Below, one piece after another: positions 37,927-41,600 of a DNA stretch of 64,000 nucleotides. Source of the stretch: Octopus vulgaris (taxonomy: Eukaryota); NCBI GenBank assembly GCA_951406725.2, contig OX597816.1, positions 58,218,001 through 58,282,000 on the forward strand, in the 5' to 3' direction. Each line of letters starts with the position of its first letter. Position 1 is the stretch's first letter. Position numbers and translations under genes: made by a program. The notes under the pieces are model-generated. The model saw nothing but the letters and a program-made list of their open reading frames with translations. It did not search any database and was not told the DNA's origin.

Positions 37927-38408
37927 ACTCTCTAATGAAGCTCTGGGGCTCAGTTTATTTTCCAACTTCTGTTCATGCTGGACTCCCAAAGTTTTTTTGG
38001 AAGCACTCCGTCGGTTACGACGACGAGGGTTCCGGTTGATCCGAATCAACGGAACAGCCTGCTCGTGAAATTAACGTGTAAGTGGCTGAGCACTCCACAG
38101 ACACGTGTACCCTTAACGTAGTTCTCGGGGAGTTTCAGCATGACACAGAGAGTGACAAGGCCGGTTCTTTGAAATACAGGTACAACAGAAACAGGAAGTA
38201 AGAGTGAGGGAAAGTTGTGGTGAAAGAGTACAGCAGGGATCACCACCATCCCCTGGCGGAGCTCGTGGAGCTTTTTAAGTGTTTTCGCTCAATAAACACT
38301 CACAACGCCCGGTCTGGGAATCGAAACCGCGATCCTATGACCGCGAGTCCGCTGCCCTAACCACTGGGCCATTGCGCCTCCACACAAAGTAGAAACAGCT
38401 GTAAGAGT
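37927..38408 (+). ncRNA. Type I hammerhead motif split by a SINE insertion (G5A core change)
   Basis: After removing SINE 37993-38382 and one TSD copy: ACTCT-CTAATGA-A-[GCTCTGGG...CCCAAAGT]-A-GAA-ACAGCTGT-A-AGAGT. Confidence 0.65.
37993..38382 (-). mobile_element. tRNA-derived SINE family C with an 8-bp TSD. Same head at 16269-16564(+) and 37325-37600(-); tail-only piece at 46498-46610(-)
   Basis: Head TGGAGGCGCAATGGCCCAGTGGTTAGGGCAGCGGACTCGCGGTC...GGTTTCGATTCCC, A-tail, TSD CCCAAAGT (37985-92) / CACAAAGT (38383-90). Confidence 0.9.
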
Positions 38409-38575
38409 AAAATTCTCTTCTCTCTTTTATTCTTATTTATTTGTTTATTTATCCAAATGATTGTAATTAATAAATAGATCAAACTGATGTTTGCCGATTA
38501 GTTATCTTCTCCAGATTCTTCTTTGCTTTATATATGAGTTCATTGTTTAAACCTCGCCAAGATAAATATTTTAAC

Positions 38576-38639
38576 CACCTGATGAATGACTGTAACTCGA
38601 AAATTTAAAGAAATTAACAGCCATGAAACGATCGTAGTG
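38576..38639 (+). ncRNA. Type I hammerhead ribozyme motif (canonical core) in a Penelope-like pLTR
   Basis: CAC-CTGATGA-[ATGACTGT...ACAGCCAT]-GAA-ACGATCGT-A-GTG: 3-bp stem I, 8-bp stem II with 1 mismatch, palindromic stem III, GUA site at 38634-38636. Confidence 0.75.
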
Positions 38640-41600
38640 TTATATTAATTATATTTTTTTAATAATTTTGTTATATATTTAAATAATCTTATGTATTGGC
38701 TTAAGTTTCTCATTGTATGATTTGCCTAATAGTGGTTTTGTCTCTAATTTAATATAATATAATATTTTACTATAAAATTGGATTCAATCCTAAATCTGAT
38801 TTTTCCCTGTAAGTTTGGATTTATTCCCTAATATTTATTATATATATATATATATATATATATATATATATATATATATATATATATATATATATATATA
38901 TATATATATATATATATATATATATATATATATATATATATATATATATATATATACCTTCGAAACGCATAGTAGATGAAACCATGGCGATTGAAGAAGG
39001 AGAATTTTCCTTGTGTTATTTGTCCTGTACTCTATTTTTTCATCGTTTAAGAAAAATGTCCAGTTCCTTGGTTTTGTGCTTATGTTTTCGTTTCTCATTG
39101 TGTTCGATGTTTTTTTTGTGTCCTGTACCCATATATGCATATATATATACATGTTGAGGTAGGTGCGTACATATATGTATATATATATGCATATGTTTTA
39201 TTTATTAATTTATATATATATGTATATATATATAGGTCTCGTAAAACAAATCTTTTTCATCTTATTTCCTTCTTTGTATATATTTTTTCTTCTTTTACTT
39301 GTTTCAGTCATTTGACTGCGGCCATGCTGGAGCACCGCCTTTAGTCGAAGATATCAACCCCCGAGACTTATTCTATCGGTCTATTTTGCCGAAACGCTAA
39401 ATTACAGGAACATAAATACACCAACATCGGTTGTCAAGCAATAGTTGGGGTGGGGGACAGACACAGACACACAAGCATATACACACACACAAGCATATAC
39501 ACACACACAAGCATATATATATATGTCGGGCGTCTTTCAATTTCCATCTACGATCTACGAAATTCACTCACAAGGTTTTGGTCGGCTCGAGGCTACAGTA
39601 GAAGACGTTTGCCCAAGGTACCACGCAGTGGAAATGAACCCGGAACCATGTAGTTGGGAAGCAAGCTTCTTACCACACAGCTACGCCTAGGTATAGGCGA
39701 ACGATTTCAGTAAGTCGCCCTGTTTTTCACCAGGTTTCGTATCTCACTGAAAATACCGTAGTACACCTGATTATAGCCCTTTAAATGTTCTGCTCAAGTT
39801 TCTTCACTTCTAAGCGGAGAATGAAACGCATTGGAAAAAAGATGGCTTAGAACGACGTCTTAAAATGAATCACAACAATAACAACTCGCGCGTGCTTTAT
39901 AATTGGTACAAGATAAGGCTTATCATGTTCTGCTGAGAAATACTATGGTATAACCAAAAGGGAAATAATCTCAACTAACCGTCATGAAAACAAATTGAGT
40001 TAGCAAATTACAACAACGAAATAAAGAAGCTCCATGATTATTTGGGCATAAACAGCTTAAATGAACGGAATACCATCTTGCAGCACTGAACATAAGATTG
40101 ACTTCGTCTGTTTGGACAAAAGAACCTTTTTTCATACTGCTACTTGCAATCAAACATAGTTATATGAAAATTCTCTGTGTACACACAAACACACACATTG
40201 TCAGGTGCTATGATATACCTGAAACCTATGGTAACTTTCAGACCGTCCATAACCAACCATATACTACTACTTTATATATTATGCATGTATATGCTTCTAT
40301 GTTTTAATTATTATAACTCTCCTGCTAAGCGCTTTGTCCGATGCACCAACGATTCTGATAATAAAGTAGTGAATCGGCCGAAATGTTATGTCCTTGTAGT
40401 TTAGTTATGTACGATGACCTGCTGTCTTAATCAGAACCTGTAATTATGAATTTTTGGTGTGTCACTTTTTAAATATAACGATATATAAAAACACACCACT
40501 GGAACAAAATAGTCACGTGAAAAACAAACCAAAAAAACCCAACAATGCAAGAAAATATTGGTTTCAAAATTCGGTACAAGGCCAGCAATATCAGGGGTAA
40601 AGTCGATTACATCGACCCCTGTACTCAGCTGATACTTATCTTATGGACCCTGAAAAGATGAAAAGCAAAGTCAACTCAGCGAATTTGAACTCGGAACGTA
40701 AAGACAAACAAAATACTGCTAAGCATTGTGTCCGACGCGTTAACAGTTTGTCAGTTCGCCGCCTTCACAATAAAAGACAATATTCTTTTCTACACTAGGC
40801 ACAAGGCCCAAACTTTTTGGGGAGGGTGCCAGTTGATTACACCACCCTCAGTACGCAACTGGTACTTAATTTATCGACCCCGAAAGGTAAAGTTGACATC
40901 GGCGGAATTAGAGCTCAGAACGTAAAGACAGACGAAATATCGATAAGCATTTCGCCCGGCGTCCTAACGTTTCTGCCAGTTTGCTGCTTTACCATAAAAG
41001 ACAATATAAAAAATCTTTTATCTTTTACTCGTTCAAGTCGTTGGACTATGGCCATGCTGTAGAAACACCTTGAAAGGGTCGAACAGATTGACTCGGGTAT
41101 ATATTTATATTTTAAGTCGGATTTTAACGGTCTCTGTAGTTATGGGGATTCTAACGGTCTCTATAGCGAAGGTATGGGGTCGTAAACAAACCAACTTCGG
41201 TTGTCAAGCGGTGGTGGGGGACAAACACATACGATTAAACACACACACACATGCATGTATTTATGTATATGTATATATACACACACACCAAATTCACTTA
41301 CAAGGTATTGGTTGCCCCGGGGCTTTAGTAGAAGACACTTGCTAACAATACCACAGAGTGGAACTGAACTCGGTGTCACATGGCTTAACCACACAGTCGT
41401 ACCTATATTTAATAGGTGTACTTAAATATTTAAGATGACCTGGATCCCCAAAAGCTAAATATTGAATGGGGGTCTCCTTTTAACAAGCCAGGGTCTTTAC
41501 ACACCATAGTCTCTCCGCAATAAGCTTTTTATTGCAAATTAAACATGCGAGGGTATAGGACTACAAAAGAATATATTAAACTTTACAAGACTTCAAAAAA

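Follow-up and report, generated by a model that had tools for sequence, protein, structure and literature searches.

Penelope-like elements (PLEs) carry hammerhead ribozymes at their 3' ends or in their pseudo-long terminal repeats (pLTRs), and these are of type I, with a long helix II, a short helix I, a palindromic helix III and an extra base after A9, behind the first core box (PMC4209133). Most are dispersed single motifs from truncated elements, and the metazoan examples are weak in vitro (PMC4209133), while the hammerhead of an Anolis PLE cleaves only with its protein (PMC11167929). Hydra-clade PLEs are targeted to (TA)n and are present in octopus, as Hydra-1_Obim of Octopus bimaculoides, and head-to-head inverted, 5'-truncated copies are a described feature of PLE insertion (PMC8557442). 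Here we describe two hammerhead motifs, HHR1 and HHR2, on the plus strand of a 64,000-nt window of the Octopus vulgaris genome (GenBank assembly GCA_951406725.2, contig OX597816.1, positions 58,218,001 to 58,282,000; coordinates below count from the first letter of this window). We consider it likely that they are two independent 5'-truncated PLE-type 3' tails of different age, stacked in a CYP27C1-like gene. The locus is made up of the following parts.

37927 to 37992, plus strand: 5' half of HHR1, with the stem I 5' arm, the core carrying G5A at 37934 and a long stem II
37987 to 37992, plus strand: left copy of the target-site duplication, 6 bp
37993 to 38384, minus strand: short interspersed nuclear element (SINE) of tRNA type between HHR1 stem II and GAAA, its box A/B-like head and A7 tail identified by eye
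38385 to 38390, plus strand: right copy of the target-site duplication, 6 bp
38391 to 38408, plus strand: 3' half of HHR1, with GAAA, the palindrome, a cut after 38403 and the stem I 3' arm
38409 to 38528, plus strand: AT-rich stretch with low depth and no homology to the HHR2 tail, probably the 3' tail of the older element
38529 to 38535, no strand: short TA run where the two units meet
38536 to 38838, plus strand: younger, high-copy, 5'-truncated retroelement 3' end with HHR2, marked by a depth edge in four of four runs
38576 to 38639, plus strand: HHR2, core intact, cut after 38636, matched by the type I descriptor
38839 to 38956, no strand: (TA)n microsatellite, likely the insertion target

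In HHR2 the CUGANGA box is present as CTGATGA at 38579-38585, and GAAA lies at 38625-38628. Stem II joins 38586-38593 to 38617-38624 with seven of eight pairs, stem I is short (3 bp), and the palindrome ACGATCGT at 38628-38635 is followed by the GTA site, which is of the NUH kind. The type I descriptor matched nothing but HHR2 on either strand of the window, and HHR2 went unreported by Rfam under both its gathering and its E-value thresholds. HHR1 becomes visible once the insert at 37993-38384 and one copy of the 6-bp duplication are removed. Its stem I then pairs 37927-37931 with 38404-38408 (5 bp); position 5 of the core (37932-37938) is A, so the core boxes are not intact in this copy; stem II pairs 37940-37952 with 37978-37992 (about 13 pairs, including bulges); and GAAA at 38392-38395 overlaps the palindrome ACAGCTGT at 38395-38402, which precedes a GUA site.

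Both motifs had been proposed in the original prediction, HHR2 as an intact type I hammerhead and HHR1 as a second one with a 5-bp stem I, a palindrome, a GUA site and G5A, and both withstood the chance tests. Descriptors written after the motifs had been seen gave no match to either in 60 block-shuffled windows, shuffling the 560-nt SINE-free stretch 20,000 times with dinucleotides preserved never produced an HHR1-like motif, and a looser hammerhead descriptor gave 0.3 matches per shuffled window (30 shuffles). The folding energy of neither motif beats shuffles (z 0.63 and 0.14), which is the expectation for hammerheads that are small and AT-rich. Each palindrome pairs with itself, in agreement with the predicted PLE type, the homodimers having energies of -11.1 and -10.0 kcal/mol and the mixed HHR1/HHR2 duplex one of +0.4; the two palindromes cannot form a mixed dimer. 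An HHR2 motif scan of viral contigs returned no match. Two sets of hits elsewhere were set aside as chance, namely seven matches to an HHR1 17-mer in sequence collections, none with an upstream core, and three metagenome matches and one bacterial-genome match to a gapped HHR2 pattern, all apparently from one bacterial coding region and lacking palindrome context or flank similarity.

The SINE that splits HHR1 has its tRNA-like head at 38384 and its A7 tail at 37993-37999. Two further copies lie in the window, and its contig depth is in the millions, with loose contig ends at 38003 and 38383-38384 (among the 24 of 2,551 loose ends listed). The insert thus combines a tRNA-like head (by eye), an A tail, a target-site duplication and high copy, as tRNA-derived SINEs do; ARAGORN found no tRNA in the head. 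That a SINE interrupts the motif was correctly foreseen, but the right end moves from 38382 to 38384 with the element on the minus strand, and the exact duplication is 6 bp, the proposed 8 bp matching at seven of eight positions and including 2 nt of the SINE head; the join itself is unchanged. The arrangement of SINE and hammerhead is not an assembly artefact, because both junctions are crossed by single near-identical contigs (X3 record 25 over 37781-38017; X2 record 24 and X3 record 32 over about 38361-38558), although the window itself may derive from one of these runs. G5A inactivates hammerheads. HHR1 is broken twice, by the SINE insertion and by G5A, and to judge from its sequence it is dead at this locus.

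HHR2 could at most cut plus-strand read-through RNA once. Among the 40 of 125 variant rows listed, seven of seven variant sites across 38572-38653 fall outside the 41 core and stem positions of HHR2 (post hoc P about 0.006), which gives a hint that the HHR2 family may keep the fold. A 20-codon frame (38586-38648) opens at the first base after the HHR2 core and closes at once; in the Anolis Poseidon element the start of the open reading frame (ORF) likewise stands directly after the hammerhead core (PMC11167929).

The division of the locus into two units comes from depth, junction and homology. Contigs from four of the 24 listed sequencing runs, one of which (X10) is putatively RNA, were placed on the locus and depths taken as ratios to the contig of the locus itself; such summed depth does not measure copy number, and only the size of the step is used. 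Over HHR1 and the spacer the ratio is 1.9-15.5 (six bins from 37877-37990 and 38409-38522; DNA runs X2 and X3), whereas in the same runs it is 1,223-10,108 over 38561-38712 and 10,593-34,264 over 38713-38826. The lower edge computes to 38551-38554 in all four runs, and a further rise follows near 38710. The HHR1 halves are each covered by single unbranched contigs, which suggests that exact 30-mers of the HHR1 unit do not recur at any other locus. Contigs of both X2 and X3 stop at 38558, which, with 31-letter words, suggests that the shared repeat begins near 38529, at the 7-nt TA run. The abundant young family is thus HHR2 and its tail, and it excludes HHR1. Because depth climbs toward the 3' end and TA flanks the unit on both sides, the HHR2 unit is read as a 5'-truncated retrocopy, and such copies piling up at the 3' end beside (TA)n are a PLE feature.

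Homology gives the same division. HHR1 and HHR2 show none (286 of 300 shuffles as good), nor do the two tails (271 of 300 shuffles scored as well), and no direct repeat was found between the units of the kind that a pLTR made by partial tandem of the same element would leave. The proposal of a single pLTR or retrozyme-like unit is consequently poorly supported, since the abundant family starts at about 38553 and leaves out HHR1, the units are non-homologous and no mixed dimer forms. The last 130 nt of the HHR2 tail (38713-38838) are several- to ten-fold deeper than HHR2 itself, which reflects either numerous copies truncated to a very short length or a tail common to another family.

Upstream of HHR1 lie two further features.

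37775 to 37881, no strand: high-copy hairpin element, MITE-like (miniature inverted-repeat transposable element), with 44-nt arms that are 91% complementary (z -8.97)
37878 to 37901, minus strand: inverted, 5'-truncated copy of the HHR1 core and stem II 5' arm

Positions 37878-37899 are an inverted copy of 37935-37956 (22 nt, 86%); the hairpin between them has a z of -5.0 (0 of 200 shuffles), and none of 300 shuffles gave an inverted match as good. On the minus strand this copy has G at core position 5, and the HHR1 core was therefore probably once intact, which bears on the earlier question of whether it began as CUGAUGA. It also carries the base that repairs the HHR1 stem II mismatch at 37943, the only mismatch in the first eight pairs. 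The HHR1 unit in this way shows the PLE arrangement of an inverted 5'-truncated copy at the 5' end. The hairpin element, with a depth of 20,000-108,000 in X2, cuts off the inverted HHR1 arm. For the rest of the arm, left of the hairpin element, the only candidate was an AT-rich match equalled by 9 of 300 shuffles, and it was not accepted. The adjoining stretch 37700-37748 resembles 46395-46445.

Both motifs have the helix proportions and the extra base after A9 that are described for PLE 3'-end and pLTR hammerheads (PMC4209133). The helix III of HHR1, of the ACAG/CTGT-A kind, is that of Penelope-1_SK, Penelope-1_NV and Hydra-1_aMil (PMC8557442). In contrast to the PMC4209133 type, loop II is long (about 22 nt) and there is no linked ORF here, and the two motifs are unrelated and 233 nt apart on one strand, whereas the close pairs described in that source lie on opposite strands. 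In the Hydra clade the hammerhead mostly stands about 90-210 nt from the 3' end, by our own subtraction from Files S1 and S2 of PMC8557442, as against about 220 and about 280 nt here. The hammerhead given there for Hydra-1_Obim differs in sequence from both HHR1 and HHR2, and six short HHR1, HHR2 and tail motifs were not found in the supplement, where line breaks can hide matches (PMC8557442). Bdelloid rotifer Terminons likewise bring several PLE-like hammerheads into one composite region, but Terminons, as described, are giant, telomere-attached and ORF-bearing, and none of these features is seen at the octopus locus (PMC7761336, PMC6431247).

Two stacked tails would have arisen as follows. 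The PLE endonuclease would nick AT-rich DNA, with reverse transcription starting near the RNA 3' end and usually stopping early; tails would thus be left beside (TA)n, and the TA run of an older tail could be reused by a later element. At this locus the older HHR1 element would have inserted head-to-head, leaving the inverted copy (37878-37901) beside the direct one and ending at the TA run near 38529. It would then have decayed, through the SINE insertion between stem II and GAAA, the change of G5 to A and the loss of part of the inverted arm to the hairpin element. Later, a copy of the abundant, unrelated HHR2 family (a tail of about 200 nt) would have been reverse-transcribed from its 3' end into the TA run, with synthesis stopping near 38536-38553. 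Each hammerhead, in its parent element, would cleave the transcript that carries it, probably as a palindrome-paired homodimer or aided by the element's protein.

The adjacency of two hammerheads is not much of a surprise, because seven other hammerhead-like loci lie elsewhere in the window. With nine loci in 64 kb, a hand estimate puts the number of same-strand neighbours within 300 nt at about 0.2 per window, a shared TA target not yet being considered. PLEs are reported to account for 6.83% of the O. vulgaris genome and to fall into 190 families (PMC13282606).

Several observations weigh against two stacked PLE tails, beginning with the nature of the depth measure given above. Each of the six bins covering HHR1 and the spacer is deeper than single copy, and contigs of other loci differ at 38417, 38421 and 38494-38502 (among the 40 of 125 variant rows listed); the extra depth may come from scattered old relatives or from a small family with both hammerheads. 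The junction TA run is only 7 nt long. Joints are represented by 15 of 361 and variant rows by 40 of 125, the SINE dominating, and none of the listed joints spans the SINE or the junction, nor does a SINE-free, empty site appear in these rows, so that the boundary and the conservation count depend on partial rows. Moreover, the highly conserved G10.1-C11.1 pair described in PMC4209133 is absent from both motifs: the closing pair at 10.1-11.1 is U-A in HHR2 and G-U in HHR1, although U-A is also found in Hydra-clade rows (PMC8557442). Finally, no reverse transcriptase or GIY-YIG ORF was found at the locus, linked to either tail, both pieces being too short to hold one, and the PLE origin is therefore argued from structure alone.

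The best surviving alternative, which we regard as improbable, is a low-copy composite element in which both hammerheads moved as one unit and a double cut gives a linear RNA of 233 nt; the abundant HHR2 family would then be a short truncated form of it, or its donor. The motifs do share strand, architecture and GUA sites, depth across HHR1 and the spacer runs at 2-16 times single copy and is highest on the HHR1 halves, and the differences of other contigs at 38417-38421 and 38494-38502 would fit members of such a family. Terminons offer a partial parallel, with PLE-like hammerheads at several places (PMC7761336). On the other hand, a depth edge of about 200-fold lies upstream of HHR2 in four of four runs, the HHR1 contigs are unbranched, a TA run marks the junction and no mixed dimer forms; in addition, the Hydra-clade elements examined in PMC8557442 each have a single 3' hammerhead, save for second copies of the same motif. 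If anything slightly less probable is a fuller form of the same idea, a small Octopus composite family with two unrelated hammerheads 233 nt apart and an upstream anti-core hairpin, whose transcript would be cut twice by ribozymes able to pair only with ribozymes like themselves, so that a linear RNA of defined length is set free, and of which the present locus would be a SINE-broken member.

That the inverted copy is a built-in anti-core hairpin, a switch that silences HHR1 within long transcripts, and did not arise as a side effect of insertion, seems to us very doubtful. The hairpin is predicted with a probability of 0.999 in the SINE-free RNA, where it would block stem I, and its z of -5.0 is in its favour. 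However, the two arms show several differences, as expected of decayed duplicates, the inverted arm ends at an unrelated hairpin element, and head-to-head inverted copies are ordinary for PLEs as described in PMC8557442 and occur elsewhere in the window. Furthermore, when the arm is taken away, stem I of this HHR1 copy still hardly forms (0.0003).

Still less credence is given to a non-long-terminal-repeat (non-LTR) retrozyme, a tandem unit yielding the circular RNA of about 250 nt that had been suggested. Like animal non-LTR retrozymes (PMC7229834; bioRxiv 10.64898/2026.07.22.740005), the locus has type I hammerheads a few hundred nucleotides apart in AT-rich sequence with no protein; the cut sites lie 233 nt apart, close to the predicted spacing of about 250 nt, and this distance and the low GC (28%) are within the animal retrozyme range (PMC7761336). 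Retrozymes moreover derive from PLE terminal repeats, but they consist of a single unit repeated in tandem, every copy with its own hammerhead (bioRxiv 10.64898/2026.07.22.740005), and the units here are unrelated. A circle of 38404-38636 would leave HHR2 with a stem I of 0 bp and the ribozyme would not be rebuilt, which weighs against a circular product. Least probable of all is that HHR1 is a chance pattern of the in-silico join, for despite its core mismatch, the edit needed to reveal it and a descriptor fitted afterwards, it was absent from 20,000 local shuffles, a 6-bp duplication at the true ends of the SINE fixes the join, G5 is found independently in the inverted copy, and helix III matches published Hydra-clade motifs (PMC8557442).

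Returning to the two stacked tails, the host gene is identified by a 53-residue exon in the window with 100% identity to CYP27C1-like records of O. vulgaris and O. bimaculoides, and four of six frames tested in the window matched Pfam p450. The CYP exons lie on the minus strand, between positions 37098 and 2578. The hammerhead locus is probably in a CYP intron above the exon at 37098, because that exon begins with an acceptor-like site (the upstream exon was not located). HHR1 and HHR2, on the plus strand, are antisense to the CYP transcript, as had been predicted. In the CYP introns, frames at 7034-8079, 15415-15702, 30000-30302 and 51545-52121 look by eye like fragments of mariner transposase, of a THAP domain and of the C-terminal part of non-LTR retrotransposons.

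As for the other hammerhead-like loci, seven of eight rows of the motif scan fall at six places (17165, 20371/20621, 21609, 29796, 56376 and 62310), to which 14947 is added, and several adjoin TA runs. Most belong to abundant short tails at 17120-17258, 20360-20667, 21590-21630, 29747-29901, 56279-56400 (minus strand) and 62260-62414, with a related piece at 36280-36370. These have a hammerhead-like hairpin followed by GAAAC-GT-H in five of seven copies, and altered first core boxes (CTGTTGA, GTGTAGA, CCATAGA, CCGACGA and CCGACAA). The catalytic box looks more eroded than stem II and the second box, as though conservation acted on the fold and not on cleavage, and these tails may relate to the label 'HHR_half_core' in PMC8557442. 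The TA-flanked piece at 36280-36371 was rejected as a relative of the HHR1 and HHR2 tails (80 of 500 and 283 of 500 shuffles as good). Within 20360-20633 the same tail occurs twice, tail-to-tail inverted around a microsatellite and 95% identical. Between microsatellites at 14662-15044 lies a hammerhead-like motif with the core CTGACGA at 14947, GAAA at 14989, a near-palindromic helix III and an imperfect helix I. This locus has a 61-nt inverted copy (arms 14756-14816 and 14971-15031, 90%), the same layout as HHR1.

To summarize, a literature search found neither octopus motif, nor any PLE tail with two unrelated hammerheads, although the repeat library of PMC13282606 may hold these families. 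The locus would add two octopus PLE-type hammerhead families that Rfam misses and would give an order of events at one site, a contribution of modest weight. The purpose of PLE hammerheads is still open, cleavage being dispensable for insertion in vitro (PMC11167929). Should the improbable composite element prove true, a retroelement with two non-interchangeable ribozymes would be a natural test of that purpose.

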